DNA of 64,000 nt from an uncultured virus (IMG/VR IMGVR_UViG_3300020048_000090) (IMGVR_UViG_3300020048_000090), one strand, 5' to 3'; positions 3,119-60,685 are shown, numbered from the stretch's first letter. Numbers and translations: made by a program. The notes: generated from the letters alone by a model not told the origin.

Positions 3119-3119
3119 A

Positions 3120-3449: not shown

Positions 3450-3451
3450 TC

Positions 3452-10967: not shown

Positions 10968-13097
10968 ATGCAAGAGCTAGATGACATGGAATTAGTAGTT
11001 ACTTCTGAAAAAGAACTTTCAGGTTGGGAGAATCCTCCTAAAGTATTAGATTTGAAACAAGATTATCAGGATGCTAAACCTAATCATGATTTACAGATTA
11101 CTAAGATTAATACTTGGTTAGATAATCTAAATGTCACTGGTTCTGCAGTAGTTAAGTCTGCTAATGGTAGAAGTCAGATTGTTCCTAAGCTAATTAGAAA
11201 ACAAGCTGAATGGAGATATTCAGCATTAACTGAACCATTCCTAAGTACTGATGATATCTTTAATGTTGATCCAGTTACATTTGAAGATAAAGCTGGTGCA
11301 GTACAGAATGAACTAGTACTTAATAATCAGTTTAACTGTAAGCTAAATAAAGTTAGATTTATTGATGAGTACGTTAGAGCAGCAGTAGATGAAGGTACTG
11401 TCATTGCTAGAGTAGGTTGGGAATTTGAAGAAGCAGAAGAAGAAGTAGAGATTCCAGAATATGATTATCAGCCTACTGATGACCCTCAATTGCTTGAGCT
11501 ATACCAAAGCCTACAACAAGATCCAAACGCTTCAGAATCAGCTCCTCCTGAGCTTCTAGAGGCATTCCAGATGAGTATGCAAGCTGGTGTTCCTTTAGCC
11601 CCTGTAGTTATTGGATCACATAAGGAGATGCAGACTGTAGTTAAGAAGAATCAGCCTACTGTAGAAGTCTGTAGTATCAAGAATGTGATCATTGATCCTA
11701 CTTGTATGGGTGATATGGATAAAGCTAGCTTTGTTATCTATAGCTTTGAGACTAGCTTATCTGAGCTTAAGAAAGATGGTAGATACAAGAATCTAGAATC
11801 CATTGATATTAATAATGCTTCTGTATTGGCTCAACCAGATCATTTTTCTCCAGATGATTCTAGCTTTACCTTTAAAGATAAGCCTAGAAAGAAGTTTGTA
11901 GCTTATGAGTATTGGGGTTATTGGGATGTAGATGGAGATGGTATTGCTGAACCTATTGTAGCTACTTGGGTTAACAATACTATGATTAGATTACAAGATA
12001 ATCCATTCCCAGATGGTAAACCTCCTTTTGTATTGGTTCAATATCTACCTGTTCGTAAATCAATCTATGGTGAACCAGATGGTGCATTGCTAGAAGAGAA
12101 TCAAAAGATTCTAGGAGCAGTAACCAGAGGTATGATTGATATTATGGGTAGATCTGCTAATGGTCAGAGTGGTATCCGTAAAGATGCTCTAGATGTAACC
12201 AATAAGCGTAAGTTTGATCAAGGTAAAGACTATGAATTTAATAGTCAGGTTGATCCAAGACAAGCATTCTATATGCATACTTATCCTGAGATTCCTCAAT
12301 CAGCGCAGTATATGGTTAATTTACAGAATATGGATGCTGAGAGTCTTACAGGTGTAAAAGCCTTCACAGGAGGCATATCAGGTCAAGGATTGGGTTCTAC
12401 TGCAACAGGTGTTAGAGGAGCATTAGATGCTGCTTCTAAACGTGAATTAGGCATCCTTAGAAGGCTTGCAGAGGGTGTTAAGCAGATTGGTAGAAAGATT
12501 ATTGCTATGAATGCTGCTTTCCTCTCAGAAGAAGAAGTTATTAGAGTTACCAATGAGGAATTTGTACCTGTTAAACGTGATGATCTTATGGGTAATTATG
12601 ATCTTAGATTGAGTATTAGTACTGCTGAAGCTGATAACCAAAAAGCAGAAGAGTTAGCTTTTATGCTTCAGACTACTGCACAATCTATGGGACCTACATT
12701 CAGTCAGATGATCTTGTCTGAGATTGCTAGACTCCGTAAGATGCCAGACTTGTCTAAACGTATAGCTGAATTCCAACCAGAACCTAATCCAGTAGAACAA
12801 AAAAGAGCAGAACTAGAAGTAGCTTTACTAGAAGCTCAAGTAGCTAATGAGTCTGCTAAAGCTAATGAGAATGAAATGGATATTCAACTTAAGACTGCTA
12901 AACTACAGAAAGAAATGGCTGAGACTAAAGCTATTAAATCTAGAGCTGATCTAGATGATCTTACCTTCCTTGAACGTGAGCAATCAATTGATCATGAAAA
13001 GAATCTAGAAATGCAGAGAGGTAAAATAGAAGGTGATATTCTGAAAGAAAGAGCAAAGTATCTGAATAGTATGTCTAAAGGATCTAAAGATGAGTGA
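10968..13097 (+). CDS. portal protein (N4 gp59-like)
   Basis: 709 aa; GRSQIVPKLIRKQAEWRYSALTEPFL, YEYWG, ESLTGVKAF, ALDAASKRE motifs of N4-like portals. Confidence 0.95.
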   Translation: MQELDDMELVVTSEKELSGWENPPKVLDLKQDYQDAKPNHDLQITKINTWLDNLNVTGSAVVKSANGRSQIVPKLIRKQAEWRYSALTEPFLSTDDIFNVDPVTFEDKAGAVQNELVLNNQFNCKLNKVRFIDEYVRAAVDEGTVIARVGWEFEEAEEEVEIPEYDYQPTDDPQLLELYQSLQQDPNASESAPPELLEAFQMSMQAGVPLAPVVIGSHKEMQTVVKKNQPTVEVCSIKNVIIDPTCMGDMDKASFVIYSFETSLSELKKDGRYKNLESIDINNASVLAQPDHFSPDDSSFTFKDKPRKKFVAYEYWGYWDVDGDGIAEPIVATWVNNTMIRLQDNPFPDGKPPFVLVQYLPVRKSIYGEPDGALLEENQKILGAVTRGMIDIMGRSANGQSGIRKDALDVTNKRKFDQGKDYEFNSQVDPRQAFYMHTYPEIPQSAQYMVNLQNMDAESLTGVKAFTGGISGQGLGSTATGVRGALDAASKRELGILRRLAEGVKQIGRKIIAMNAAFLSEEEVIRVTNEEFVPVKRDDLMGNYDLRLSISTAEADNQKAEELAFMLQTTAQSMGPTFSQMILSEIARLRKMPDLSKRIAEFQPEPNPVEQKRAELEVALLEAQVANESAKANENEMDIQLKTAKLQKEMAETKAIKSRADLDDLTFLEREQSIDHEKNLEMQRGKIEGDILKERAKYLNSMSKGSKDE

Positions 13098-27559: not shown

Positions 27560-30500
27560 ATGGCTTATGAACCTATTCTGCCAAGTGCAACTGCAGCATT
27601 TGATCCAAATGTATTAAATCCTTATAGTGGTTTTACTACAGAATGGGCATTGCGTGATCCAGTAAAGGAGAAGGTAGATTCTCTCAATGCAGCTAAAGCA
27701 GAGAAAGAAGAGTTATTTAGAAAGCAGAAAGAAGAAAGAGCTGCTAAGTACTTTATGTCTGATGCAAATGCACAGAGTGGTTTAGGTGGAGTAGTAAATA
27801 CAGTAGGTGGTTTTTTTGGTACTGCAGCAAGAGTAGGTGGCAATATATTAGGTGTTCCTGAGTTAGTAGCAGAGTCTGTAAAACCTGCTGTTGATTTCAT
27901 GAGCCAATATATACCTGAAAGTGTTAAAGATGCTTATGGAGCTGTTGATGAAGCTCTAACTATTAGGAGTGATAATAAGACTGCAAAAGATTTAACTAAA
28001 GTTTTTAGAGATCCTACAGGTCTTGTTAGTGACTTTGGTAAGTTTATTGGAGATAGTTGGGAAGGTTATTATAATCCAGTAAATGTAGAAGAGTTACAGG
28101 CAGATTTTAGTAAAGACTTTGACACTAATGAAGGTGTTCTAAGAGTAGCTGGTGCATTAGCTAAGACAGCAGCAACTAATCCAGTTAAAGGTGCAGAGTT
28201 ATTTGTTACTAACTTTCCTTATATGTATGCTGCTGCTCAAAAAGGTATACCAGGTGCTGCAGCATTCTTGGGTATGGTTAATGAGTTTAATAATGAGTCT
28301 TTAGAAAAGTACAAAGAAACTCATGATGGACAGTTACCTGATGCAAAAGCACAAGCAGTTATGTTGGGTACTGGTGTAGCTGCAGCAGCTACAGAAAAAG
28401 TAGCTTCTATGTTCCAGTTAGGTAAGATAGGTGGTCCTAATATAGCTCCTAAAGTCTTATCAGTGCCTACTAGATATGCGACTGGTGGTGTTTCAGAATT
28501 TGGTCAAGAAGGTACTCAAACAGCTCTTACTAATATTGGTGGATATCAAGAACAATTATTAGAAGATCCAGATTTAGTAGATAAGACAATCAAAAAATCT
28601 GTTGTAGCTGGTGCTATGGGTATGGCTTCATCTTCTGTAGGTAGTGCTGGTATTAAAGCTATGCAGCCTATAGATGAACAAGCTAAACGAGCTATAGGGG
28701 CTATTAAAGCCTTCCAGAAGACTCCAGAATACCAAGGCTTAGGTACAACAAAAGAACCTGCTGGAGCAGCTTATACAGCCTTTGCTAGCACTGTTGCTGA
28801 TACTGCTATAGCTCCTGAAGCTAAGCAAGCAGCATTTAATAATGCTCTAGCTGCTATAGTGTCTAATCCAGATCATCCTAATATCAAGATCATTGCTGGA
28901 AGATTAAAAGATACTGCTACTAAAGCAGGTATTACTATTCCAGAGAGTGTTAATACACTATTAACTGATATAGCTTTAGTTAAGCCAAGTAAAGCTGCTA
29001 CATTCTATAGAGATACTAGAAATGCTTTCTTGGATAAACAATTATCTGAAAAGAATATTGAAGAGAATCCAACTGCTGCAGTTAATAGACTTAAAGTGAG
29101 TAAATTTAAGAGCACTAACATTAAAGAATATAATGTGGAGCTAGAAGAGATACGTTCTATCACAAACAATCTTATTAGTAGTGTAGGACAGCAAGTAAAA
29201 AATGGAACTATATCTAAAGAAGATGGTTATAAGCTTAATGAAACTATTGCAACTATTAGTGATGGATTCCTGACTCATGGTCAGAATTTACTTAAGAAGA
29301 ATAAAGCTGAAGTTATCCAAGAAGTAGCTACTGCTAAAGTAGAAGATAAAGATGATATTAAGTTAGGTAGTAATATAGATGGTTTAATAAGCTTATTAAC
29401 AGCTAAAGAAGGTAAGCTAACTACAGAAGAGATTGAACAAGTACTTAACTCTCCTGTCTTGACTGAACATCAAAGAAGAGTATTTACTAACTTTAAGAAT
29501 GTAAATATGGAAGAGGTTAATACTCACTTGTTCCAAGGTGGTATGAATGCAAATAAAGAAGAGTTTAAAGGCTTTAATGAGTACTTAAGAGAGATTGAGA
29601 AAGCTAAGCTTACTAATGATCAGGTTAAGTTAGATGAGAGTGTTAAAGATTTAGAAAATTGGTCTAATAGATATATGACCAATAGAACCAATGTTATTAA
29701 AGCTTATGAAGGTTTAGGAGTTGGTAAAGAAGTAACAGTACCTAATCTAAGTAATGGTGAATTTTGGCTTAAACAAGGTGTTAGTAAAAACTTTGTTAAT
29801 AATCTTAAGAAGGAAGTACAAGCATTTGCTCTTGGATTAGACCAAGCATATCTTATTGCTGGTAGAGAGAATCCTAGCATAGAAGCCTCTCAGACTACCC
29901 AGAATGAGATTACTACAGCTACCCCTAGCACTACTATTCCTCCTGCTTCTACAGCTCCTATAGAGGCTTCTAACGATATCTTTAAGAAGTATGGTTGGAA
30001 TAAGACTGAAGGAAAGTCAGAATATACCAAAGGTAACTTGAGTATCCATAAGAAAAATACAGATAATAAAGTTCATATTGGTGTAGTGGGTATTAAAAAT
30101 GATGTTCTTGATAAGCTTACTTTTGACACTTCAGCAGAAGCATTAGATGCTACTCGTTTCTTAGAAATAGAAGAAGGGATCATAATAGAAGGTAAGCTTT
30201 ATGGTTTTGGTGAGATGGATGGTATTGTTGCTAATTATTTAAGTGAAGATTCTCTAAATAGAGCAGCTTTAGTCTTTAATAGAGCACAAGCTCCTTCAGA
30301 TTACTGGAATGAGTTTGAAAGTCTTGGTTTAGAGATAACAGAGGACAATACTTTAGTAGATACTAACACCCGTGAAGTTATTGCTACAAGAGGTCCTAAA
30401 CAAACTCCTACTATTACTACTTCTTCAGTATCTTTTATAGAACCTTCTGTTGATTCTTTTATTAAAATCTTTGATACAGATACCACATATGATAAATGGA

Positions 30501-33500
30501 GTAATACTCGTGATGGATCTGATCGTGCTGTATTACAAGATCAAATACAAACAGTAGCAAAAACTTATAGTGGTAAAGTTACTCCTGAAACTAAAGAAAG
30601 TACTATTAAAGAATTAACAAAGCAGTTTAAGTGGTTTCGTAATGCTTCACCTGAAGAACGTAATGCTGCTGTTGATAGTTTAATGGCTGTAACAGCCCCT
30701 TCTACAGCTCCAACTACTCCAGTTGCTACTACCTTATTAAATAAAGAAATTAAAAATAACACTGAAGCTGTAGAGTTTATTTATGAAAATAATCCAAAGA
30801 TTAAGTCAGTAGGTACTCTAGTACAATACAAGAGATATTTAAGAAATCTTTTTAAAGACTCTGCATTCAATAAGCTAATATTCCACTATACAGAGTCTGG
30901 GAAAATAGATAAAAGCCTTAAATCTAATAAAGATGAGAATGCTTTATTCTTCTTTGATAATATTAAAAATGCACAGAGTTGGTCTGACTGGACCATACGA
31001 GGAAAAGCTCCTGTAGGCAATATTGTAGTAGCTAAGGCTGATTTAAAGAAAGAAAATACAGAAACCTTAGAAGGAGCTAGTATTGGTGGATTTAGTATCC
31101 CAGGTTTAATAGCGGATAAACTTAAGAATACAGAGTATTCTTCTTTTATCATCAATGATGTGGTTGATATGGGTGTTGAAGGCACACAGGTAGTTATTAA
31201 TGAAGGGGATATTGTTTATTTAGGGTCTAACAGAGATGTAGATTTATTTAAAGAGTGGGCAGCTACTACCCCCTCAACTACACCTGTAGCATCTCAGGAA
31301 GGTACTTCTCATGAGACTACAGAGCCAATAGTAGAAGAAGTAGTTCCTTCTGTATCTGCAAAAGAAGTAATAGATGGGATTAATAAAAAAGCAGAAGATT
31401 CTTTAATCAATTTTATTAAAAAGAATCCTACCTATAAGTTAAAAGATTTGGTTTCTTTAATAAATAACTTATTGGGTAACTTTGCTCCTATTATGAGTAA
31501 AGACTCTATTATTAAGAATACAACAGAATTTGTTAATTCATTAAAAAATGTTATACCTGAAAAACAGTTAGATAATTTTAAAGATGTTCTTAATGAATTA
31601 GAATCCAGTTGGAATATTAAAGTAAATGTTTTTACTAGATTGGCTCAATCATTACGAGGAAATGCTAAAAATTTAGCTATAGGGGCTATTAAACCTTTTG
31701 AAGATTCTTTTACTATTAATAATAACACTATATTTGCTAAATCCAATAAACCTATTAGAGATTCACTTAGTAAAGCTAAATTAGATTCAAGAGTAGCTGC
31801 TTCTTTAATTAAAGAGTTAGAAGATCTAGCTAATAAAATAAAAGAAGGTATATCCAATACTCAAATTAAAACTCTTGCTCAAAATCCTGCATTACATCTA
31901 ACTGATAATTATTTAAATATATTACCAGGAGTAGCAGAAGCTATCTCTATAGCAGCTCATACGTATGTATCTAGCCAAGGTAATTCATTATTATTTAATA
32001 ATATGGATACTCTTAGAATGATGTTTGGTTTTGATAGTAGAGAGAGACTTCCTAATCCTGTATTTGATTATACTTATTCAGGTAAGAGTCTACCTACTGT
32101 AGCTGATCATATTGGTAGAGATGCTTATCAGATGTTAGGTATCAAGACAGAAAGTGAAATAGCTAGAAAGAGAATGATTCAAGCTTTAGGTATTATGGGT
32201 ATTATTGGATTAAATAGCTCTAATTATACTAAGCAGATTAGTGTCCCTTTGGATGATTATTTAGCTAACTTTAAAACAGATCCTTCTGGTGAATCATCTG
32301 TTGATAGAGATAGTGAGAAGGAAGGTGATGAGAGAAATAAGTTGTTTGTTGCACTAGAGTCTAGAGATGATGCTGAGACTGGATTTAAGGTAGCTAATGG
32401 TAAAGCAGAAATTACTATAAATAGATATAGAGAGAATCCAGATATTAGAGTAGCTCTAAAGGATATGTTTGGTGTAGAAAATAGATCAATTAATCCAATT
32501 ATATCTCCAGATGATCCAAGACTAAAACCTTCTAAGTATCTAACGGGTACTCAACAGGAAGTTAACTCTATTGGTGCAGAAGCACTAGAGAAGCTTAACA
32601 GTAGAGCATTTGTATTCAATAAAACAGGTTATGCTAACTTTATTAATCTATATAACGATTCAAAAAGAAAAGATATTCTACTGAAAGAGTTTGGATTTAC
32701 ATTCAACTTAGAGAATGAACCTATATTCTTTAGAAAAGCTCTTAAAGCTAAGAATGATCTTATCTTAAAAGAAATCCAATCTCTTATTGACTATAAAGCA
32801 GCTTTAGATGCTACTGGTAAGGAAGAATTCTTTATACCACATTCTCTTACTAAGTTTGGTAGGGTTATGCTTGATGGTAGGTCTGGGATTAATCCAAGAG
32901 AATCTAAGATACTTAGGTTCTTGGTTAACTTAACTAACTTTAACTGGAAGCTTGACCAAACAATACCAGAGCATATGTTTAACTTTAAACATGCTGTTAT
33001 GGGTAACTTTGGTAATGAAGTAAGTAAAACTACTAAAGGAGAGGTAGAAACTGGATTTGATGATTTAGTTGCAGAGATAGAAGAGCTAGGATTGGAAGAG
33101 ACAGATGCTAATGACATATTAGATTTAGTTGTACGTAAAAAGACAGATCATCCTACTGAAGCTATGAATGCTATTATTAATGTAATTAGATATATTAAAT
33201 CTAAAGGTAAAGCATTTGATGTAGTTATCTCTCTAGAAGTAGATGGTAAAACTAACGGTATGGCTTGGGCTTATCTACAATCTGGTGGTCAATTAGATCC
33301 TGATTTACTTACAGCAATGGGTTTGTTTACTAAACCTAATCAGACTGAATTTGTTGATGAGATGGCTAAAGATGGTATGAATGATACCTATCAAAGTGTA
33401 GCTATTGTTTGGGGACAGTTTCTAGATATAGTAACTGCTGGTTGGGGTAAGGAAGCTTCAGCATACTTTGCAGCACAACAAGCTTATCTAGGTAGCTTCT

Positions 33501-35515
33501 TTAAACCAGATACTCGTGAGGTATCTAAAGCAGGTAGAGAATTATCCAAATATCCATTTATGAAGATGATGTTTGGTCAAGGTATCAATGCTATGGTAGC
33601 TGATGTGGGTAATAAACTGTTAGAAGGTATCTATAAAGAGTTTGGTGACATTAAGAAAGCTTCTATAGATGGATTAACTACATCAGAACAGATACATCAA
33701 AGATTAGAGATATTGAATGCTAATGTAGCAAGGTTAGCAAGTACAGAGCCAAGTGCTATAAACTTTACTGTAACTGATATGGATTACAGATTGGATCCAT
33801 CTTTAGAAGAAATGATTATTAGAAGTGTTACTACTACTTATGGTGAAGCATTAAAATCAACTATTGAACATATGTTTGGTGGTTTTATGAAGTATAGAGA
33901 AGCTATCAATACAGCTATGAATATCTTAGGTGATCTGTTTATTCAGAAGCTTAATCTAGTTAAAGCTGCTCATATAGAAAAGACAGGTAAAACTTTAACT
34001 GATCAAGAGATAATGGATCTAATATATGATACAGAAGGTGAATTGTATAAATTATTACCTGCTTTCCTAACTCCTAATGCTTCTAAGATTGAAGAAGGAT
34101 TATTTGCTGTTAAGATGTTTAAACAGATTAGTCCTGAAGATAAAGTACAGGTAACTGTTAAGTCTGGTAGTATCCAAAACTATAATCTAGACGGTACTCC
34201 TCAAAAAAATAAGACTAGTTCAGTTACTGGTGGTATCAAACAGTTAACCTTTAGAGAGGGTGGATTGATGTCATTTGTTGGTGGTACACATTCACAAGAT
34301 GCAGCACAAGCACAACGTATACTAAGAGAATTTGAGTCTTTAGGTGTGCATGATGCATTCTATTTTAGTATCCCAGATTTAACTAAAGGTTCTTATAGAC
34401 TTAATGAAATGTTTGGTGAGATGCAGAAGTCATATAGTATGGCTAAAGCTGTGCTAGATAGGTTTAATGAGGTTTATGAGATTGCAGGTAGTGGTTCTAA
34501 ATTAGCAAAGTTAGGTATTGTAGGTGTGGGTGCTAATCGTTTAAAAGATAGATTTATAGCATTTAAAAGAGGAGTAGATGGAAAAGATCCACTATACTCA
34601 GCAATAGAGTTAGCTGTTAATACTACCCCAGATAATGTAAAGAAAGTACTTATGATACAACAGTTTCCTTTCTTAGGTTCTGCAGCAGCTACAGTACAAG
34701 TAGAAGATATGGTTTGGGATACAGATTTTACTTCTACTGGGCCAAGTAAAACAGAAGAAACAAAACCTACCATAACTCCAAAGAGTAGATATAAGGGTGG
34801 TTTTGATTCTTCAGGTAAAGGTACTCCAGATGGTGATGGTAAAGATAAAGCTATGCGTGAGGTTGCTGATGCCTTTATAGGTGAGATTTCTGGTATATTT
34901 AAAGGACGTGGTGAGGGATTTCAGGGTAGTTTTTATAAACAAAAATTTAATAAAGCTACTAGTACATATACAAGCCTTATGGCTATTTTGGATAAAACAA
35001 AAGAACCTGGTCTTACAACTTGGGATACTGATGGTGATATGGAGGCTGTTATTACAGGAGCCTTTGTATTAGATAATCCTAAAGTTGTAATGCTTGCTAG
35101 AAATAAAGAAACTGGACGTTGGGATATAGGTAAATTAACTAAACAGCTTATTAAAGATGCACATGATAAAGGTGCTATCTTTGTAGTTGGTGATATGCCT
35201 AATGTAGATTCACAATTCATTGATTACTTACAAGAAATAGGTGCTTCTTTTACTGTTTACCATACTGGATCTAATTCTAGAATCCAAGTAGAAGAAACAA
35301 AACCTGTAGTAGATTCAGTTGTAGTGTCTGAACAAGCTGAAGCTGTTGATTCAATATTAACTGATACTGCTAAATATCTTAAACTAAAAATTGAGAGTAT
35401 AGATTTTATGATGACTACTAAAGAAGAAGATGTTTTTATAAAAGAATTCTTTGAGAAGTATAGCCAAGCAGATATAGCAAAAGCTAAACAAACACTTAAT
35501 TGTCAAGGAAAATAA
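27560..35515 (+). CDS. virion RNA polymerase (N4 gp50-like), N-terminal and polymerase portion, with inserted domains
   Basis: Single-subunit RNAP motifs: TKFGR (T/DxxGR), EVDGKTNG (A), RELSKYPFMKMMFG (B), GVHDAF (C); 2651 aa, one Cys. Confidence 0.92.
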   Translation: MAYEPILPSATAAFDPNVLNPYSGFTTEWALRDPVKEKVDSLNAAKAEKEELFRKQKEERAAKYFMSDANAQSGLGGVVNTVGGFFGTAARVGGNILGVPELVAESVKPAVDFMSQYIPESVKDAYGAVDEALTIRSDNKTAKDLTKVFRDPTGLVSDFGKFIGDSWEGYYNPVNVEELQADFSKDFDTNEGVLRVAGALAKTAATNPVKGAELFVTNFPYMYAAAQKGIPGAAAFLGMVNEFNNESLEKYKETHDGQLPDAKAQAVMLGTGVAAAATEKVASMFQLGKIGGPNIAPKVLSVPTRYATGGVSEFGQEGTQTALTNIGGYQEQLLEDPDLVDKTIKKSVVAGAMGMASSSVGSAGIKAMQPIDEQAKRAIGAIKAFQKTPEYQGLGTTKEPAGAAYTAFASTVADTAIAPEAKQAAFNNALAAIVSNPDHPNIKIIAGRLKDTATKAGITIPESVNTLLTDIALVKPSKAATFYRDTRNAFLDKQLSEKNIEENPTAAVNRLKVSKFKSTNIKEYNVELEEIRSITNNLISSVGQQVKNGTISKEDGYKLNETIATISDGFLTHGQNLLKKNKAEVIQEVATAKVEDKDDIKLGSNIDGLISLLTAKEGKLTTEEIEQVLNSPVLTEHQRRVFTNFKNVNMEEVNTHLFQGGMNANKEEFKGFNEYLREIEKAKLTNDQVKLDESVKDLENWSNRYMTNRTNVIKAYEGLGVGKEVTVPNLSNGEFWLKQGVSKNFVNNLKKEVQAFALGLDQAYLIAGRENPSIEASQTTQNEITTATPSTTIPPASTAPIEASNDIFKKYGWNKTEGKSEYTKGNLSIHKKNTDNKVHIGVVGIKNDVLDKLTFDTSAEALDATRFLEIEEGIIIEGKLYGFGEMDGIVANYLSEDSLNRAALVFNRAQAPSDYWNEFESLGLEITEDNTLVDTNTREVIATRGPKQTPTITTSSVSFIEPSVDSFIKIFDTDTTYDKWSNTRDGSDRAVLQDQIQTVAKTYSGKVTPETKESTIKELTKQFKWFRNASPEERNAAVDSLMAVTAPSTAPTTPVATTLLNKEIKNNTEAVEFIYENNPKIKSVGTLVQYKRYLRNLFKDSAFNKLIFHYTESGKIDKSLKSNKDENALFFFDNIKNAQSWSDWTIRGKAPVGNIVVAKADLKKENTETLEGASIGGFSIPGLIADKLKNTEYSSFIINDVVDMGVEGTQVVINEGDIVYLGSNRDVDLFKEWAATTPSTTPVASQEGTSHETTEPIVEEVVPSVSAKEVIDGINKKAEDSLINFIKKNPTYKLKDLVSLINNLLGNFAPIMSKDSIIKNTTEFVNSLKNVIPEKQLDNFKDVLNELESSWNIKVNVFTRLAQSLRGNAKNLAIGAIKPFEDSFTINNNTIFAKSNKPIRDSLSKAKLDSRVAASLIKELEDLANKIKEGISNTQIKTLAQNPALHLTDNYLNILPGVAEAISIAAHTYVSSQGNSLLFNNMDTLRMMFGFDSRERLPNPVFDYTYSGKSLPTVADHIGRDAYQMLGIKTESEIARKRMIQALGIMGIIGLNSSNYTKQISVPLDDYLANFKTDPSGESSVDRDSEKEGDERNKLFVALESRDDAETGFKVANGKAEITINRYRENPDIRVALKDMFGVENRSINPIISPDDPRLKPSKYLTGTQQEVNSIGAEALEKLNSRAFVFNKTGYANFINLYNDSKRKDILLKEFGFTFNLENEPIFFRKALKAKNDLILKEIQSLIDYKAALDATGKEEFFIPHSLTKFGRVMLDGRSGINPRESKILRFLVNLTNFNWKLDQTIPEHMFNFKHAVMGNFGNEVSKTTKGEVETGFDDLVAEIEELGLEETDANDILDLVVRKKTDHPTEAMNAIINVIRYIKSKGKAFDVVISLEVDGKTNGMAWAYLQSGGQLDPDLLTAMGLFTKPNQTEFVDEMAKDGMNDTYQSVAIVWGQFLDIVTAGWGKEASAYFAAQQAYLGSFFKPDTREVSKAGRELSKYPFMKMMFGQGINAMVADVGNKLLEGIYKEFGDIKKASIDGLTTSEQIHQRLEILNANVARLASTEPSAINFTVTDMDYRLDPSLEEMIIRSVTTTYGEALKSTIEHMFGGFMKYREAINTAMNILGDLFIQKLNLVKAAHIEKTGKTLTDQEIMDLIYDTEGELYKLLPAFLTPNASKIEEGLFAVKMFKQISPEDKVQVTVKSGSIQNYNLDGTPQKNKTSSVTGGIKQLTFREGGLMSFVGGTHSQDAAQAQRILREFESLGVHDAFYFSIPDLTKGSYRLNEMFGEMQKSYSMAKAVLDRFNEVYEIAGSGSKLAKLGIVGVGANRLKDRFIAFKRGVDGKDPLYSAIELAVNTTPDNVKKVLMIQQFPFLGSAAATVQVEDMVWDTDFTSTGPSKTEETKPTITPKSRYKGGFDSSGKGTPDGDGKDKAMREVADAFIGEISGIFKGRGEGFQGSFYKQKFNKATSTYTSLMAILDKTKEPGLTTWDTDGDMEAVITGAFVLDNPKVVMLARNKETGRWDIGKLTKQLIKDAHDKGAIFVVGDMPNVDSQFIDYLQEIGASFTVYHTGSNSRIQVEETKPVVDSVVVSEQAEAVDSILTDTAKYLKLKIESIDFMMTTKEEDVFIKEFFEKYSQADIAKAKQTLNCQGK

Positions 35516-46025: not shown

Positions 46026-47147
46026 CTATCTATTTGATTTACATATGTTTATAGCTAATATAATATCTTTTATATTATCTATAGAAGCATTATTCTCTAA
46101 TGGTATTTCATCTGCCCAAGTAGGATAGTGAATAACTAATTCAGCACCTAGCTTTACTTCTGAATGATAGATTTCAGGATGATCTTGCCAACTCATACAC
46201 TCAATCAGATTATCGTTAGTAAACTTAAGTACTTCTGTGGTATCTTTAATTATGAAGTAAAGTGAGTCATGGATTGAAGCTATAGGATGTATATCAGTAG
46301 AATATTCTGAATCATATACTCTTTGCATAAATTCATTCTGTGCTCTGCTATTTAAGATACACCAAGATTGTCCCAATGCATTACCAGCAGTTCTACCTTC
46401 AGCAGCAGCTTCATATGGCATCTTCTTGCCATATAGAATCTGGTTAAGAATAGGAGTTCTTAATCTTAATCCAAATGCAGCAGTGATATAGCCATCTGTA
46501 GATGCTTGCTTTAGTTTATCCTGTACCCATTGATCTGATACTTGATATAAATCATGATATGCTTTCTCAATAGATAGAGCTTCTTCTTTATTGAATCCAC
46601 AGTTATTCATTAAGGTAGTATATTGACCCTGATAGGTAAGTGCAAAAGTTGGAGCTTTACTAGCTTGTCTTAACTTTTTATATTTACTAGCAATAGAGTT
46701 AATAGAATCAACATTATTTGGATCAATATCTGGCATTTTATCTTTCCAATAAAAATATGCTCTAAGACAGTGTCCATCATAGCCATCTGTGTAAACACGT
46801 AACTTATTAGGATCTTTAGTTGTTAATGCACTAATACGATCTTCTAAAGACGCACTATCTGCACTAACTAAGAGATAACCTGATGGAGCTTGAAAGCATT
46901 TCTTTATTGGTTTAGCATATACACTACCTGTACTAGGAATCTGTTGCATATTAGGTTTACTACTACTAAACCTCCCAGATAAAGTTCCCCCAAGATTATA
47001 GTTTCCATGTAGGTAAACTCTATCTTCTTTAGGGATAGTCTTATATAAGAAGTTAGGTATAAAGCTATCTAATATCTTAGATACTTTATTTAACTCTATT
47101 AAGTCTTTTAGTATCTTAGCTTTTTGGATTGCTTCTTCTCTTGTCAT
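46026..47147 (-). CDS. family A DNA polymerase, C-terminal (palm/fingers) part
   Basis: ATG at 47147 with AAGGA SD; SGRFSSSKPNMQQIP, ADSASLEDR (A), RQASKAPTFALTY (B), IHDS (C). Confidence 0.92.
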   Translation of the reverse strand: MTREEAIQKAKILKDLIELNKVSKILDSFIPNFLYKTIPKEDRVYLHGNYNLGGTLSGRFSSSKPNMQQIPSTGSVYAKPIKKCFQAPSGYLLVSADSASLEDRISALTTKDPNKLRVYTDGYDGHCLRAYFYWKDKMPDIDPNNVDSINSIASKYKKLRQASKAPTFALTYQGQYTTLMNNCGFNKEEALSIEKAYHDLYQVSDQWVQDKLKQASTDGYITAAFGLRLRTPILNQILYGKKMPYEAAAEGRTAGNALGQSWCILNSRAQNEFMQRVYDSEYSTDIHPIASIHDSLYFIIKDTTEVLKFTNDNLIECMSWQDHPEIYHSEVKLGAELVIHYPTWADEIPLENNASIDNIKDIILAINICKSNR

Positions 47148-47328
47148 TACCAATCCTTTCAGCAATCTCTAATTCAATGGTGTTTAGATATCTAGTGAAT
47201 ATAGGCATTATAGAACTCTTCATTTCACTATCTTCAGTCTCTAATTCTTGTATATCCTGAAGCAATAGCTTCTTCTGTTTCATAAGCTGTTTTAGAGACT
47301 TCTCATGATTCCATTTAATCTCTTTCAT
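47116..47328 (-). CDS. 70-aa helical protein between the polymerase halves
   Basis: TAATG-coupled to N-part, overlaps start of C-part. Confidence 0.55.
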   Translation of the reverse strand: MKEIKWNHEKSLKQLMKQKKLLLQDIQELETEDSEMKSSIMPIFTRYLNTIELEIAERIGNDKRRSNPKS

Positions 47329-48788
47329 TACAATTCACTCTCATTAATATTAAACTCTTGGATTAGTTGGTTATATAAAGCTATCAGAGTATCTTTATCT
47401 GTTGCTGGTAATCCTGTATCTGTTGTATTGATGATAGGAAACTCTAAATACTCATATAAGAGTTTAGCTACTTGTATTCCACTATTACTGTTTAAGCTAG
47501 TCTTAAATCCACTAATAGGAATATACTTCTTCTTAAGCTCTTTATTCTTCTTAATGAATGCTTCTTTCTGTAGTAACCATTCAAAGTCTTGAACAAGCTT
47601 ATTGTTGCTTAGTGAGTTTAAATGTCTCTTCTGTATCTTATTAAGCTCTTTAGATGCTTTCTTAATCTCAGAGTATTCCATAGGGAATCCAATAAGCTGC
47701 ATATGTACAATAGACTTAATGCTAGACAACATAATAGATTCATATATATCCAATTGATTATCAGCAACCATTATTGGCTTATATTTGTTATAGACATACC
47801 ATGTAGCTAAGGTATCTACTAAGTTATACTTTAACAATTCATCTGTAGGAATATCTTTAACAGTAACTTCATCATCTAAGATTCCATAGTTACCTGCAAA
47901 CTCTAATGCTAGATTTTTAAGCTTAAGATCATTACCAGCAGTTGAGTTAGTAGCTAGATAAGTGATTACTTGACTATCCTCTAGAGATTTAGTCATTGTA
48001 TGTAATCCATCTAATAATCCAGAATAATCTAGATAATCTTTCATAAACAGTCTAAAGACTAGATGAGTAATATCAAATGTAGCTCTATGGAATATCAATG
48101 TACCTTCATAGATTCTAAAGAATTCAACCAATAATGGTTTAACTTCTTGTGTTACCAGAAAAGCTATACCTTCATGCTGGTTCCAAGCAAAGCTAATAGA
48201 AGCTAGTTCAGCTTCATCTAAGGCTAAGCCAAGGGTTTCTATATCACATGTAAGGAAGGGCTGTTTTAAGAGCTTATAGAGCCATTCTTTGATGCTATCT
48301 AGGTTGTCTGGATAAGCTTCAAAATGAATGATCCCCAATCCAAGAGATGTATGAGTACCTTTGGTATGTTGATCCAATGTAGCTATAGCTAAATCTACTT
48401 TAGCTTGTATAGATGGATTGTAGAATAATGCTTGATAGTTAGGACATAGAATTACATCAAAGTCATAACCAGTAATAGCACATTTAACAATTGATCCATA
48501 ATGAGGTTCAGCTTTACCTAACTTAGTTAATGTCTTGAAATAAGCTGTATCACATACAAATAATGTCTTTACTTGTAGATGCTTACATACCTTTAGTACA
48601 TTGCTAAGTACTTCTTTAATAAGAGATACAGGAGTTTTACCATTAGAGTCATATTGAAGAGATAAACAAATAGTATCATCCAAATCTATTGGATAATGTT
48701 CTTGGATTTCATTCTTCTTAAATGCTGATTCTTTTATGAGTAAAGCTATTGAGTATGTATCTTTATCTTTAAAAGATAAATGATTCAT
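47328..48788 (-). CDS. family A DNA polymerase, N-terminal part (N-terminal domain, 3'-5' exonuclease, start of thumb)
   Basis: YFKTLTK..KAEPHYG; Exo I CDIET, Exo II FHRATFDI, Exo III YNLVD; S..QVAKLLY...T.TG.PATD. Confidence 0.9.
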   Translation of the reverse strand: MNHLSFKDKDTYSIALLIKESAFKKNEIQEHYPIDLDDTICLSLQYDSNGKTPVSLIKEVLSNVLKVCKHLQVKTLFVCDTAYFKTLTKLGKAEPHYGSIVKCAITGYDFDVILCPNYQALFYNPSIQAKVDLAIATLDQHTKGTHTSLGLGIIHFEAYPDNLDSIKEWLYKLLKQPFLTCDIETLGLALDEAELASISFAWNQHEGIAFLVTQEVKPLLVEFFRIYEGTLIFHRATFDITHLVFRLFMKDYLDYSGLLDGLHTMTKSLEDSQVITYLATNSTAGNDLKLKNLALEFAGNYGILDDEVTVKDIPTDELLKYNLVDTLATWYVYNKYKPIMVADNQLDIYESIMLSSIKSIVHMQLIGFPMEYSEIKKASKELNKIQKRHLNSLSNNKLVQDFEWLLQKEAFIKKNKELKKKYIPISGFKTSLNSNSGIQVAKLLYEYLEFPIINTTDTGLPATDKDTLIALYNQLIQEFNINESEL

Positions 48789-55560: not shown

Positions 55561-55824
55561 TTACTGGAGTTGGGTGCTATAATCTACTTTACCATCGTCT
55601 TTTACTGGGTATATCCATTTGTTATCTGGCCATTTCAAATCATCACTCATAAAATATGTCTTTGTATTTAACTCTGCAAGCCAAGGGGTATTATCATTAA
55701 AAATGATATATAGCTGATCGTACTTTATGCTGTAGTGTTTAACATCTTCCCATGTTTTATCATCTGGCAATTCAATTACGTTTTCATTGGTTATTTCATA
55801 AATAACTTTGACTAAATATTTCAT
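55561..55824 (-). CDS. hypothetical protein
   Basis: 87 aa, ATGA-coupled. Confidence 0.5.
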   Translation of the reverse strand: MKYLVKVIYEITNENVIELPDDKTWEDVKHYSIKYDQLYIIFNDNTPWLAELNTKTYFMSDDLKWPDNKWIYPVKDDGKVDYSTQLQ

Positions 55825-56825
55825 TTTAAATCCATATTAATATAAACTGTTTCTCCTACTGGAGATGGTTCATGGTTAGAATAGCAAATCCATAGGATAG
55901 GAAATCCTGGATCTTCTGTTATTGGATTAGCATACAAGTCTGTAAAATAGACTAATAGATTAGTACCATGTGTTTTGCAATACTCGATTGGAGGTTTTAG
56001 TGAAGTATTACCTCCACCTGAGAACTTAAGATCCAATATAGAATCGTTACTATCTATTTCATGGATATTATGAATCCTGTAATCACAATCCAAGATTGTA
56101 AGATTATCTGGTCTAATTGTTTGATTGATATACTCAATCTCAGATAGGAAGCTCTTAAGTAGCTCATCATTGATACTACCACTTGTATCAATAGCTACTG
56201 TTAGGCTACTGATACGTTTACTCTCTACACTAGGTAAGTACCATTGTGGAGCATATCTCTTATTTGGTTTAGACCAAGATTCCTCTTGTCTAGCATTAGC
56301 ATCTAAGTACCGATGTAATACATCAACCCAAGATAGTTTTGGATTAATCAAGTCTTTAACTACTCTAAGAATCTCTTCTGGTATGTTAGAAGTATCTCCA
56401 GATAGTTGTGCTCTTTGGATAGCTTTAACTACTGTATTGGTTACTTTCTCTATCTGTTCTTCAGATAAGCTTTCTTCAATGTCTTCTGAGAAGTTATTAG
56501 GTTGTTGTTCTGGATTCTTGATTAGGTAATCATATACCTGTTCAGTACTCATACCTGTAAACTTATGGTCATATAGACCATCTTTAGGAAGCTTAAAGTT
56601 ATTCTTTACCAATAAAAGATTTACAACGTAGTCGCAATTATGTACAACTATATCGTCGGCAATGAAAGCCCCTTTTTCTGTAACGAGGTCATATACTTGT
56701 TGTAAATTGCTTTCTCTTTGTTGAAAGAATCCTTTCTTAAGTTCAAAGCTTTCACTTCTTGAACAAGCTTCTCCATGTAAGGAGTCGGGGTATCGTTTTT
56801 CTTTTGTTTCATACGTTCGTTGCAT
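55821..56825 (-). CDS. C-intein + C-extein of N4 gp25-like metallopeptidase/vWA protein
   Basis: VYDLVTE..AFIADDIVVHN/C (intein blocks F,G), then CDYVVN, vWA MIDAS DTSGS, GGGNT, YFTD. Confidence 0.85.
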   Translation of the reverse strand: MQRTYETKEKRYPDSLHGEACSRSESFELKKGFFQQRESNLQQVYDLVTEKGAFIADDIVVHNCDYVVNLLLVKNNFKLPKDGLYDHKFTGMSTEQVYDYLIKNPEQQPNNFSEDIEESLSEEQIEKVTNTVVKAIQRAQLSGDTSNIPEEILRVVKDLINPKLSWVDVLHRYLDANARQEESWSKPNKRYAPQWYLPSVESKRISSLTVAIDTSGSINDELLKSFLSEIEYINQTIRPDNLTILDCDYRIHNIHEIDSNDSILDLKFSGGGNTSLKPPIEYCKTHGTNLLVYFTDLYANPITEDPGFPILWICYSNHEPSPVGETVYINMDLK

Positions 56826-57292
56826 AATTCAATTACCACCCTACAGACAGGTTTTTTTATGATCAGGAATGGTTCTAATTTAACTAAGAAATCTACTAAA
56901 GCAAAGCCTGATTGTTGTATAGACCAGTATTGATTGCCCATATTATTAATTTTCTCTACTCCATAAAATCCTAGAGATTCTAGATATTTTAGAAGGAAAA
57001 AAGACGTATTAGTAACTATTAAAGTAATACGTAAATATGGATGACCATTTTGTGTTTTTGATATGCTTGCTGTAATTGTGCCTTCCCCATCAATTAAACC
57101 ACCAAAGTAAGCTAAGTCACTTCCTGATAAATTTAAAAGTGGTTCTAAATTCTCACGTTTCTTAGCATACCTATCTGCTTTTAGTCCACGGATTCTTAAA
57201 AACTCAGCTAAAGTTTTATATTTAATATCAGTTAATTCAACTAATTGAGATAGTGTATTTGTTTGGTAGTTATCTAAAACTACTTGACGCAT
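56648..57292 (-). CDS. free-standing single-motif LAGLIDADG homing endonuclease, out of frame with the intein halves
   Basis: LAYFGGLIDGEGTI, LEPFLIIKK; ATG 1 nt after the N-intein stop; overlaps the C-intein. Confidence 0.85.
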   Translation of the reverse strand: MRQVVLDNYQTNTLSQLVELTDIKYKTLAEFLRIRGLKADRYAKKRENLEPLLNLSGSDLAYFGGLIDGEGTITASISKTQNGHPYLRITLIVTNTSFFLLKYLESLGFYGVEKINNMGNQYWSIQQSGFALVDFLVKLEPFLIIKKPVCRVVIELCNERMKQKKNDTPTPYMEKLVQEVKALNLRKDSFNKEKAIYNKYMTSLQKKGLSLPTI

Positions 57293-57293
57293 T

Positions 57294-57830
57294 TCAGGTT
57301 TTTCTTGAAACGTATATGTCCCGGTTTGTGCAGTCTTGAGCTTCTTTAAATCCGTCATTTGTTAATATCCTATGGTCAGGTGTACATACTAATTTTTGAT
57401 TAAGTAGACCAACTTTTTTTATACCTTTATCAAGTACTTCAAGTACTTTATTTGGTCCTAAAGGAGAATCCACATAATCCCCTGGAACAATATCAACTAA
57501 TTTCTTATATGTTCCATCTGCCATTTTAACAGAACTCTGACCACTAATGCAAGCCATATTCCATACTTGAGGATCTTTAGTACCTCTACGAACCATGTGT
57601 TCAAAAGCTACATGGAAAATTTCATGAGCCATTAACCCTACTCTTTCTTCTGGTGTTAATCCCATAAAGAAATCTGGGTTATATTTCACATAAGTACCAT
57701 TTGTAGCTGCTGTAGGTACATCAGTGCTAATTTTATGTTCTAGCATTACTGAGATACTGCTTAGAAACAATGTACCTTGTTTCATTAGTAGATGTACTTT
57801 AGCTTTATCTAACGTCTCTTTAGGTGTCAT
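57294..57830 (-). CDS. N-extein (HExxH metallopeptidase) + N-intein of N4 gp25-like protein
   Basis: TAATNG, HEIFH, WNMA then CISGQSSVKMADG (block A) and CTPDHRIL (block B), then stop. Confidence 0.88.
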   Translation of the reverse strand: MTPKETLDKAKVHLLMKQGTLFLSSISVMLEHKISTDVPTAATNGTYVKYNPDFFMGLTPEERVGLMAHEIFHVAFEHMVRRGTKDPQVWNMACISGQSSVKMADGTYKKLVDIVPGDYVDSPLGPNKVLEVLDKGIKKVGLLNQKLVCTPDHRILTNDGFKEAQDCTNRDIYVSRKT

Positions 57831-59296: not shown

Positions 59297-59672
59297 TGGC
59301 TAACTCATCTGGGATTTCTATTTCATTACCTAACTTACTACTAACGTAAGCTCTCATAGTAGCAGTTAGAAGAGTTGTACCAGTACCAAAGTGTGTTGCT
59401 CCATATAAGCCTTGCTTACTACAATAGTAGCCTGGATTCATCCAACTAATATCAATATGTTCCTCTTCAATGATAGGACCAGCAATAGACCAATCAGTAC
59501 TTGGCTCATATGTAAGTATGCCAAATTCATCATAATGACCTGCCCATAGCAATATAATATCTACTACTAGAGTACCAGAGGTAATATCGCTTATATTTAC
59601 TCTTACATCTCTAGCTTTAGCTACTGCCCAATCAAGAGCAATACCTGTTAGTTCATTAGTTTTAATTTTCAT
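59283..59672 (-). CDS. NinX/DUF2591-like protein
   Basis: ELTGIALDWAVAKA...PSTDWSIAGPIIE...AMRAYV.SKLG.EIEIP. Confidence 0.75.
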   Translation of the reverse strand: MKIKTNELTGIALDWAVAKARDVRVNISDITSGTLVVDIILLWAGHYDEFGILTYEPSTDWSIAGPIIEEEHIDISWMNPGYYCSKQGLYGATHFGTGTTLLTATMRAYVSSKLGNEIEIPDELANEEK

Positions 59673-60685
59673 ATCAGTGTCTCTTTTGCATGAGTTTTAA
59701 TCCATTGCTTAACAGCAGGTAATGCATATAACTCTTTATTACGTTTAATAGAGTTAATCCAAGTTACTATTTGAAAGTCTAATGGAAGTCTTTCAATAAA
59801 CTTAGTAAGAGCTTCAATATTCTTTTCATTCATATTAGCTGAGATTAATCCAGTAAATGCATACAGAATATCTGGAGTCTCTTTAATAGGAATTCCAGTT
59901 GGATTAGCTGTAATTGATTTAATAGTAGGAAGGGATTCATATATCTCTGTATAGCCTTTAAACTCTCTAGCAGCACCTTCACCTACAGTACCAGCAAGGA
60001 TGATTGTATCTGTCAATGATAGGTTTGGTTTATCTTTGATAATGTTGTTTACAAACTGCCAAGTTCTAGGACTGCTATAAGTATTATCAGTATGGTTTGG
60101 ATTAAAGTTGTGTAATAGCTCTGGTCTAAATTCAATGAAGCTAGTGATACGAGTATCCATACCAATGCTATTAGCCCACTCTAACCAATCTTTATTATTT
60201 ACTACTAGGTTGAAGTGAATCATCCTTGATTGCATAGCTGTACTCATACGATTAACAATTGCCTTATCTGTAGACTTGTTTCCTGCTGCTACGATAGCTA
60301 CCCTATCGTGTAGCTTATATTGCCCTACCATACGGTCTAGAATCAGCTTATAGCTGGCACTCTGGGTAGCTAGAGAAGCACTGGAGAGTTCATCTAAGAA
60401 TAGAAGTATTCCATCTTTACCTTTAGGTATTGGATCACCTTCAATTGGGAAGATAATAGGTGGTGTGAATACAGTTTTACCTTCATGGATTGTAGGAAAT
60501 CCATTTAGATCTACGCTATCCATCTGACTAAGACGTACATCAATAAGATGTAGATTTAGATTATTGGCTACCTGTCTTACAATATCGCTTTTTCCGCAGC
60601 CCGGAGATCCACTAATGTAAGGTACTAGACGAGCATACAATACATCCATAATTGCTTCAGGCAATTGTTTGGTAGTAATGTTCAT
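59669..60685 (-). CDS. MoxR-like AAA+ ATPase (N4 gp24-like)
   Basis: GSPGCGKS, DVRLSQ, LFLDE, AAGN, SPRTW; partner vWA gene downstream. Confidence 0.88.
   Translation of the reverse strand: MNITTKQLPEAIMDVLYARLVPYISGSPGCGKSDIVRQVANNLNLHLIDVRLSQMDSVDLNGFPTIHEGKTVFTPPIIFPIEGDPIPKGKDGILLFLDELSSASLATQSASYKLILDRMVGQYKLHDRVAIVAAGNKSTDKAIVNRMSTAMQSRMIHFNLVVNNKDWLEWANSIGMDTRITSFIEFRPELLHNFNPNHTDNTYSSPRTWQFVNNIIKDKPNLSLTDTIILAGTVGEGAAREFKGYTEIYESLPTIKSITANPTGIPIKETPDILYAFTGLISANMNEKNIEALTKFIERLPLDFQIVTWINSIKRNKELYALPAVKQWIKTHAKETLI

Follow-up and report, generated by a model that had tools for sequence, protein, structure and literature searches.

The origin of naturally split inteins is a long-standing open question. 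It is usually put down to a one-step invasion or to a fortunate break, and both need a stop codon, a start codon and still-associating halves to be in place at once. We considered this question at a locus in a 64,000-nucleotide (nt) stretch of DNA from an uncultured virus (IMG/VR IMGVR_UViG_3300020048_000090), referred to in its whole length as the window, where a gp25-like gene lies in two parts on the minus strand with a third open reading frame (ORF) between them. The locus is probably a gp25-like gene (DUF2201_N metallopeptidase/VWA) of a freshwater N4-like phage, broken by a split class-1 intein. Judging from the sequence and from models built on it, we think it likely that the two intein halves form a working trans-splicing intein, and that this intein derives from a contiguous one that carried an overprinted endonuclease gene.

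The features of the locus are the following, with positions counted from the first letter of the window and with IntN and IntC standing for the N- and C-terminal intein halves.

57552..57830, minus strand: N-extein of the gp25-like gene, 93 amino acids (aa), from ATG 57830 to ...QVWNMA, with a HEIFH zinc motif (DUF2201_N).
57297..57551, minus strand: IntN, 85 aa, with block A CISGQSS and block B CTPDHRILT; its last 21 codons are shared with the endonuclease ORF.
57294..57296, minus strand: TGA closing the N-ORF (three-frame print-out).
56648..57358, minus strand: putative homing-endonuclease ORF, 236 aa, in the +1 frame, with a single LAGLIDADG motif LAYFGGLIDGEGTI (profiles, homologues).
57362..57371, minus strand: start context of the endonuclease, AGGA at 57371-57368 and an in-frame TAA at 57364-57362, within the IntN codons HRILTND.
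56826..57293, minus strand: stretch between the intein halves, with 17 further stops in the extein frame and the endonuclease core in the +1 frame.
56835..56842, minus strand: AGGGTGGT, a Shine-Dalgarno-like run about 10 nt 5' of the IntC start codon, a weak match of presumed function.
56637..56825, minus strand: IntC, 63 aa, with blocks F/G VYDLVTEKGAFIADDIVVHN (sequence, predicted interface).
55821..56636, minus strand: C-extein, 271 aa, beginning CDYVVN, plus its stop codon at 55823-55821 (DUF2201_N and DUF2201).
56622..57552, no strand assigned: segment of 931 nt absent from the intein-free allele, taking in the intein with the endonuclease ORF and codons 1-5 of the C-extein.
59669..60685, minus strand: AAA ATPase gene, the upstream neighbour (Pfam AAA, E 3.6e-7).

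The original prediction, made from the sequence of this stretch, had placed an 85-aa IntN at 57551-57297 and a 63-aa IntC from ATG 56825 to the junction of VYDLVTEKGAFIADDIVVHN with CDYVVN, in a shared frame with in-frame stops between them and with exteins that join seamlessly as WNMA-CDYVVN. All of these coordinates and motifs are present. The N-ORF (57830-57297) consists of the N-extein and IntN and runs from ...QVWNMA directly into CISGQSS...CTPDHRILT...IYVSRKT before its TGA, and the coding part of the C-ORF (56825-55824) consists of IntC and the C-extein. The two are in one frame, and we count 18 in-frame stop codons between 57296 and 56829. The class-1 splicing motifs are complete, with C1 (CISGQ), CTPDH, the terminal ...VVHN and Cys+1, and in the profile check of the intein halves IntN matches Pfam Vint (Hint-type) at 30.3 bits against a cut-off of 27. 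In other words, the locus holds the nucleophile, TxxH, HN and +1 residue of a class-1 intein at a conserved site from which its removal restores the host sequence, and the halves sit on two same-strand ORFs with an endonuclease gene between them, which is the layout of a fractured gene.

The joint itself is visible in several ways. Intein-free homologues align with WNxA[C/A/G]D[Y/H]V/TIN exactly where the window has WNMA, the intein and CDYVVN, and the Pfam DUF2201_N profile is matched at positions 6-91 in the N-ORF (E 5.7e-20) and at positions 89-270 in the C-ORF. The nearest protein in the large collection that was searched (P0003) is intein-free and 364 aa long, which equals 93 + 271, and it is identical to the N-extein at 92 % and to the C-extein at 99 % of positions. 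The C-extein also carries Pfam DUF2201 (VWA-like, E 1.2e-26). All the features of a gp25 are therefore present: both Pfam domains above cut-off, HExxH, and a place downstream of an AAA ATPase gene, the same gene order as in phages Presley and nACB1, where the ATPase gene is also upstream of gp25. The Presley homologue carries the annotation 'N4-like (gp25) protein of unknown function'. In the phage collection the strongest matches come from N4-like podoviruses (Schitoviridae), none of them reaching 60 % identity; in these phages a single gene encodes a gp25 homologue of about 400 aa. A search of the phage collection for near-identical DNA gave no match, scans of IMG/VR confirmed nothing, whether the query was the N-ORF, the endonuclease or the alignment of endonuclease sequences, and a scan of genome contigs found two distant gp25 homologues only.

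Elsewhere in the window, an ORF of 2651 aa at 27560-35515 (plus strand) has no Pfam hits; its size and position are presumably those of the virion RNA polymerase of N4-like phages. Together with an SU10-type portal at 10968-13097, this ORF supports the assignment to an N4-like phage.

Might the break be an artifact of sequencing or of reading? If two compensating indel errors were present, or if ribosomes shifted by +1 and later back, the intein would be a contiguous canonical one after all, and the arrangement would lend itself to this, since neither frame is interrupted in the two overlaps of the endonuclease ORF with the intein halves (62 nt and 175 nt), and one shift in each gives a standard maxi-intein. 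Twenty sequencing runs of 17 studies contain the stretch, all of them metagenomes of lakes or other freshwater dated 2018-2025; where the word share is about 0.6 or less, a run may contain the flanks alone and was left out as an intein holder. In Logan contigs from four runs of four other studies there are no inserted or deleted letters across the region, which answers the concern about indel errors. Overlapping pieces in one of the runs (X2) span 56632-57314 with 0 gaps and include every stop, none of the substitutions listed in independent contigs falls in a stop codon, and intein-bearing pieces occur in runs of four further studies dated 2020-2025, in addition to a 2018 run from which this DNA may come. 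Gene calls of homologues (P0001, P0002 and the fragment P0124, which ends at the same ...SRKT) have the same frames and ends, and in a relative with the intein at the same site (L010) the endonuclease is out of frame even though the intein frame is open. With a TAA two codons 5' of ATG 57358 there is hardly any room for a shift, and no slippery site is seen by eye at ACC-TGA-A. We regard a contiguous canonical intein at this locus as highly improbable.

The same data contain the locus in its empty form. Contigs in three runs (X2, X3 and X5) join 56621 to 57553, with 16 other letters in place of the 931 nt, and a fourth run (X7) has loose ends that match this joint. Read on the minus strand, the joined form gives WNMA-GDYVI-N, a gp25 without intein. 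On the N side its flank matches the window over 448 nt without a difference, and on the C side there are 2-9 differences over 922 nt; the 10 differences listed at 55914-56427 are all at third codon positions. RNA splicing of the middle segment was also considered as a source of the joined form and is ruled out: the form is found in DNA runs and 16 letters are replaced, which marks it as an allele rather than a spliced RNA. The exteins nearest to those of the window (P0003, P0005 and P0006) are intein-free, and the closest inteins lie in distant exteins.

The five codons after the insertion point (56622-56636) show many mostly silent differences between the two alleles, together with Cys to Gly and Val to Ile in the empty form. 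This patch, the sole divergent one, may be a short co-conversion tract, may reflect the requirement for Cys+1, or may be an endonuclease-resistant variant of the target site.

We next consider whether the halves could work together. The predicted complex of IntN and IntC scores 0.85 (three runs: 0.85, 0.90 and 0.82), with 0.00 for the best of three controls, and passes a mark that is reached by 116 of 157 solved complexes and by 2 of 215 mismatched pairs; the pass may stem from resemblance to split-intein complexes of solved structure and is no proof of binding. At least 92 % of the contacts are common to the runs, and the predicted local distance difference test value (pLDDT) of the partner is at least 64. 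The predicted interface involves IntN residues 1-9, 27-63 and 71-84 and IntC residues 12-62, where it is dense from residue 24. The model thus predicts that IntN and IntC associate, as is expected of a split intein, with IntC residues 1 to about 23 probably an unstructured extension and residues 24 to 63 the splicing core. ATG 56825 is the sole start codon in frame after the last stop. A promoter and terminator scan placed no terminator-like site between the three ORFs, and the scan for sigma-70 promoters on the minus strand placed nothing before the endonuclease or the C-ORF, a result that is uninformative for N4-like phages, which use promoters other than sigma-70. We infer the trans-splicing, the activity of the endonuclease and the start sites from sequence.

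The ORF between the halves is assigned to the LAGLIDADG fold on the basis of sequence profiles. A profile of four homologues searched against the PDB finds I-MsoI (E 8.4e-12), I-CreI (from 1.7e-6) and also I-CvuI, and 48 of the 50 PDB rows listed are LAGLIDADG enzymes; residues 77-214 align to I-MsoI 7-150. The ORF also matches PHROG 5046 (E 2.6e-15), a family of phage proteins of about 160 aa whose own label in PHROGs is 'HNH endonuclease'. Full-length homologues are P0001 (93 %), L010 (63 %) and P0002 (60 %), and all four sequences keep D90-G-E-G, and with it the acidic residue of the motif, unchanged. In the low-confidence structural model the secondary structure runs H79-88, E93-101, E107-116, H120-128, E132-137, E143-148 and H154-160, so that a single LAGLIDADG helix, its acidic residue and an alpha-beta-beta-alpha-beta-beta-alpha core, as in homodimeric enzymes of the I-CreI type, can all be recognized. 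The single motif with its acidic residue (IDGEG) is shared with I-CreI and I-MsoI; in contrast to these, the window's endonuclease has about 75 extra N-terminal residues and is encoded in an intein rather than in a group I intron. Within the extra part, the AlphaFold2 model has a confident three-helix unit resembling a helix-turn-helix (HTH) at residues 11-60 (pLDDT 67-87). We read the protein as a candidate homodimer-type LAGLIDADG enzyme with an additional N-terminal part that looks like a DNA-binding unit. Cleavage of the intein-free allele would fit with the coexistence of empty and occupied alleles and with an intein that is far better conserved than its exteins, both of which support it indirectly.

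How common is an intein at this site? The original prediction had called the insertion site unusual; among metagenomic sequences it is not. A HMMER search with the N-ORF returned 4874 proteins at E <= 0.001; among the best 150 of these, 30 proteins are at least 560 aa long, and 29 of the 30 are gp25 homologues with a contiguous intein of about 260-320 aa at the same site, so that at least 29 metagenomic gp25 homologues hold a contiguous intein there. None of the 30 has an in-frame Pfam endonuclease domain. Instead, all 29 gp25 homologues have one [RG][RW][RG][RG] motif at a constant place, which is DGEG as read one base early, and their decoding in the +1 frame scores 461-939 against the window's endonuclease, compared with 259-348 for the other frame and 334-431 for a reversed query. 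The remaining long hit (P0227) is without this off-frame signature and is not a gp25. Conversely, the extein-frame reading of 57293-56826 in the window, with stops masked, matches the middles of two of the long hits (P0123, E 5e-25; P0125, E 3e-16).

The second of these is the protein of L010, where the DNA can be read. L010 has an open ORF of 674 aa (284-2308) with a 238-aa endonuclease ORF (768-1484) nested in it at +1. Over the endonuclease ORF there are 0 stops in the intein frame and 35 in the third frame. Synonymous re-drawing of the endonuclease codons leads one to expect 26.0 +/- 3.4 stops with host usage or 13.8 +/- 2.5 with its own codons shuffled, and 0 of 20,000 draws reach 0. The window has 18 stops, where such re-drawing leads one to expect 23.0 +/- 3.3 or 19.3 +/- 2.8. 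These counts imply that selection holds the intein frame open in L010 and has been fully released in the window.

Other searches for such relatives found little. The four-row IntN alignment, run against IMG/VR and metagenomes, recovered mostly inteins of other genes, with L010 as the sole gp25 relative. A tblastn search of phages with IntN gave 97 records, all below 60 % identity; the best 30 of the 97 are inteins of terminase, DNA polymerase, ribonucleotide reductase (RNR) or RNA-ligase genes, with no gp25 intein among them. Two shorter proteins, P0130 (203 aa) and P0134 (211 aa), are gp25 N-parts of other lineages that stop some 105-120 aa into the intein, either because they too are split forms or because a contig end cuts the ORF.

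The comparison with L010 also bears on where the endonuclease begins and which frame is constrained. The original prediction had the LAGLIDADG gene in another frame, overlapping IntC by about 180 nt and starting at the ATG 1 nt after the IntN stop. The frame and the overlap (175 coding nt) stand; the start must be moved. ATG 57292 does exist 1 nt after the stop, and the endonuclease frame is already open from ATG 57358, which has an in-frame TAA two codons 5' and AGGA 9 nt 5' and gives the N-terminus MTDLKK. The same start context is found in L010, the gene-called P0001 and P0002 begin at the same place, and the TAA excludes a longer ORF. As these contexts suggest, the endonuclease is most likely translated by internal initiation from a start that lies 62 nt inside IntN. 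Its ORF then overlaps IntN by 62 nt and IntC by 175 coding nt, or 59 of the 63 IntC codons. The TGA that closes the N-ORF is made of the wobble T of endonuclease Pro21 (CCT) and the GA of Glu22; at the aligned place L010 has a sense codon (Arg), and the change is silent in the endonuclease frame.

The constraint on each frame was compared between two sequences, the window and L010, which are also the two rows of the IntC alignment. The results by region, with differences counted at endonuclease codon positions 1/2/3, are these.

N overlap: identity 55 % in the endonuclease frame and 19 % in the intein frame; differences 7/6/12.
Middle: identity 63 % in the endonuclease frame and 26 % in the intein frame; differences 55/31/85.
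First 25 IntC codons: identity 60 % in the endonuclease frame and 48 % in the intein frame; differences 7/5/13.
Last 34 overlapped codons: identity 68 % in the endonuclease frame and 61 % in the intein frame; differences 9/7/5.

In the last 34 overlapped codons variation is suppressed at endonuclease third positions, which are intein first positions, and because of this suppression we take both frames to be constrained there. Within populations, nine differences lie inside the endonuclease ORF, and seven of them are at its third codon positions; these include two in the overlap with IntN (57311 and 57326) and one in the overlap with IntC (56711). The IntC interface is dense at residues 24-62 and the endonuclease core ends near residue 214, so the overlaps are mostly a by-product. 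Read in this way, the first 23-25 residues of IntC appear to be junk translation of the C-terminal helices of the endonuclease, the last 20 or so residues of the endonuclease appear to be read from the IntC core, and only a short stretch would be truly constrained in both frames.

Taken together, the motifs, the junction, the independent assemblies, the complex model and the coexisting intein-free allele support the original prediction in its central point, a naturally split intein with an out-of-frame LAGLIDADG gene overlapping its halves. Whether the intein works is a separate matter. The gene might simply be broken, with no productive trans-splicing and gp25 lost, while the cassette persists by endonuclease drive and the loss is tolerated or complemented. 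Several observations weigh against our preferred reading, and some of them favor this alternative directly. In X2, X3 and X5 the contig depth of the intein pieces is 3-5.6, compared with 8.9-15.5 for the empty allele, which implies that the split allele is a minority and could be complemented in co-infections. Intact exteins say little about function, since homing would reach fresh intact alleles each time, and their conservation is uninformative if homing was recent. Selection acts mainly on the endonuclease frame, even in the overlaps, as seen in the population differences and in the comparison with L010. IntC is preceded by only the weak Shine-Dalgarno-like run as a ribosome-binding site and bears an unusual extension of about 23-25 aa, and IntN is short at 85 aa. 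X2 is an RNA library whose contigs cannot show transcription, strand or ends. For the endonuclease, Pfam LAGLIDADG_1 scores 14.3 bits (E 0.077), below its cut-off of 23.1 bits, and the AlphaFold2 model, built on a four-row alignment, is poor (mean pLDDT 47.5). Finally, the +1 nesting is seen in DNA for L010 only and is deduced from protein sequence for the other 28, and the direction from contiguous to split is inferred from parsimony and from the difficulty of removing 18 stops.

The pattern of decay nonetheless weighs against a gene that had simply been broken. The middle is at chance stop density, yet IntC in its full length and the 64 codons of IntN that the endonuclease ORF does not reach are open, with every catalytic motif kept. 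IntC is constrained as well, as intein first positions are suppressed in the last 34 overlapped codons (9/7/5, compared with 55/31/85 in the middle). The predicted complex of IntN and IntC passes its controls, ATG 56825 lies exactly after the last stop, and intein pieces recur in four further studies over 2020-2025. A simply broken gene is, in our judgment, a rather unlikely account of the locus.

If the split intein does work, as we think likely, how did the gene come to be fractured? In one step, the entry of a free-standing LAGLIDADG gene into a mini-intein could have fractured it, with the contiguous forms a separate outcome of this invasion or of another and with the same function for the halves. 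This is the route proposed by Dassa et al. (2009; model II, PMC2677866) and by Gosselin, Arsenault and Gogarten (2025; bioRxiv 10.1101/2025.01.02.630785), and the endonuclease family does include free-standing phage genes (PHROG 5046; Streptomyces phage genes). A closely related mini-intein also exists. It is found in P0070 (519 aa, known as protein only), a distant gp25 homologue with a contiguous 152-aa mini-intein that is 82 % identical to IntN and 79 % identical to the last 40 aa of IntC, in exteins with identities of 39 % and 30 %. The linker of this mini-intein, however, is the 3' end of the endonuclease read in the intein frame (...IMSRTDETKEKRYPDSLHGEAC...), which marks it as a probable deletion derivative rather than a naive ancestor, and as an apparent sign of recent transfer between divergent phages. 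We also considered P0070 as proof of a recently contiguous ancestor and rejected it in that role: the same protein would result if a split ancestor had undergone a deletion and a single point change.

The relatives speak more directly to a one-step fracture. Place, +1 frame and start context are common to the window and L010, and the off-frame signature in 29 of the 30 long hits points to one ancestral invasion. Reopening a frame with about 18 stops is implausible, and hence the open state should be the older one. We therefore favor a single ancestral nesting followed by decay of the frame, and consider a one-step fracture unlikely.

In the model that we favor, the ancestor would have been a contiguous 'non-canonical' intein with its endonuclease at +1 and its own frame kept open, as in L010 today. 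An endonuclease-silent change such as Pro21 CCN to CCT, which makes the TGA, or one similar to it, would have broken the intein frame. The halves would have gone on splicing in trans, and the frame between them would have decayed to chance stop density. At present three proteins would be made, probably off one transcript: the N-extein with IntN; the endonuclease, separately initiated at ATG 57358 in IntN and ending 4 codons before the end of IntC; and IntC with the C-extein, initiated at ATG 56825. IntN and IntC would associate and trans-splice the exteins into a 364-aa ...WNMA-CDYVVN... protein, while the endonuclease would cut intein-free alleles of co-infecting phages, with the result that the whole cassette is copied in.

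Inteins with an out-of-frame endonuclease have a history; an early account is reportedly that of Gorbalenya in 1998. Natural splitting is familiar from the cyanobacterial DnaE intein (Ssp/Npu), a class-1 split intein that assembles an enzyme by trans-splicing. The DnaE halves are at separate loci and have no endonuclease gene, whereas the halves in the window are adjacent and bridged by the endonuclease ORF.

The closest layout in print is that of the 26 'fractured gene' loci of Dassa et al. (2009; PMC2677866), described there as split inteins with a free-standing GIY-YIG or Vsr-like gene. As presented in that paper, these loci resemble the window in having N-extein-IntN, endonuclease gene and IntC-C-extein on one strand, with the 3' end of the endonuclease gene overlapping the start of IntC, and in being phage-like and environmental, freshwater included. 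The differences are several. 'LAGLIDADG' is absent from the main text of that paper, and the window's endonuclease is I-CreI-like. The loci of Dassa et al. have a non-coding spacer of 27-51 nt after IntN, whereas in the window the endonuclease starts 62 nt inside it; at the 3' end the overlap with IntC is 6-69 base pairs (bp) in those loci and 175 nt in the window. The hosts there are DNA synthesis and repair enzymes, as opposed to a DUF2201_N/VWA protein here. The model given for them is an invasion that fractures the gene in one step, and the window's relatives point instead to decay of an open frame.

A second comparison is with the cyanobacterial DnaX intein with an out-of-frame LAGLIDADG, re-examined by Phillips, DeSimone and Gogarten (2026; bioRxiv 10.64898/2026.09.14.751524). 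According to that account it has, like the gp25 inteins, a same-strand LAGLIDADG gene in another frame between the splicing domains, an endonuclease frame under purifying selection with a relaxed intein frame, and full, mini and empty alleles that coexist. The DnaX layout is that of L010 and of the 28 other gp25 inteins, for which it is read from protein sequence. DnaX keeps an open intein frame and splices in cis; such a frame is found in L010 and is absent from the window, and the 18 stops make the window a derivative of the DnaX-type layout rather than a member of it. The window's endonuclease also differs from that of DnaX in being of the single-motif (homodimer) type with an N-terminal HTH-like part, and its host is a phage gene rather than a bacterial replication gene.

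Among phage inteins, Gosselin et al. (2025) describe inteins of non-canonical type in actinophages as well as a split one in phage Zeenon, and their account, like the window, has endonucleases out of frame or antisense. They propose that invasion by a free-standing endonuclease gene yields non-canonical or split inteins, and they caution that annotation pipelines miss these. The types given there are in-frame HNH, antisense LAGLIDADG or Vsr, and frame-3 endonuclease VII; the window differs in its same-strand +1 LAGLIDADG and in having a split form beside contiguous relatives. A hidden HNH is also described in the ShiLan insertion in a phage methylase (PMC11855218). Our literature search found no paper linking inteins with DUF2201, and the main text of an intein survey (PMC4760082) mentions no metallopeptidase or VWA hosts. 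The layout, then, is rare and already in print; what is new here is a LAGLIDADG gene that overlaps both halves, a new host protein, and contiguous, mini and empty relatives with which to compare it.

Other genes encountered in the course of this work have comparable arrangements. L005, on the same contig as L014, has a terminase large-subunit ORF at 1147-4545 (plus strand; 1132 aa) with two inteins; the frame of the second is open, and a 234-aa ORF at 3207-3911 (plus strand) in its +2 frame has the HNH motif HVHHKNG...NRIH, which by its sequence appears to be another out-of-frame endonuclease, of HNH type. L012 has a GC-rich terminase-like ORF at 2453-4876 (plus strand; 807 aa) with an intein whose middle is of low complexity in frame; an antisense 244-aa ORF at 3057-3791 (minus strand), with the motif VVHHKNH...HLRLH, is possibly an HNH endonuclease inside the intein. 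In the window itself, the family-A DNA polymerase (46026-48788, minus strand) is also in pieces, in which no intein motifs are seen. An ORF of 486 aa with the 3'-5' exonuclease domain (48788-47328) and one of 379 aa with the polymerase domain (47165-46026, TTG start) are in the same frame and are bridged by a 70-aa ORF in another frame (47328-47116), which has no match in the phage collection. Either a natural split or two frameshifts may account for these pieces.

The gp25 family has several implications for considering how split inteins come about. It offers intermediate forms in real sequences, and L010 carries an off-frame insert of about 190 aa. Such loci come out of gene callers as '700-aa peptidases' or as three ORFs with no apparent relation, and the layout is thus easily overlooked. 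On the practical side, the window's pair (85-aa IntN; 63-aa IntC with a core of about 40 aa) is a candidate for a new orthogonal split intein, one in which IntN is small and Cys+1 is native, and its endonuclease is a candidate new LAGLIDADG specificity. We suggest, more tentatively and as a proposal that could well go either way, that the gp25 intein family displays four stages, namely contiguous inteins with a selected open frame, the split window, the mini-intein of P0070 and the empty alleles of the same lakes. If this is true, the nesting of a homing-endonuclease gene out of frame would be the normal gateway to naturally split inteins, the overprinted middle would be a long dispensable linker, and one endonuclease-silent nonsense change would turn cis- into trans-splicing with mobility kept. 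The origin of split inteins would then have a stepwise and testable answer.

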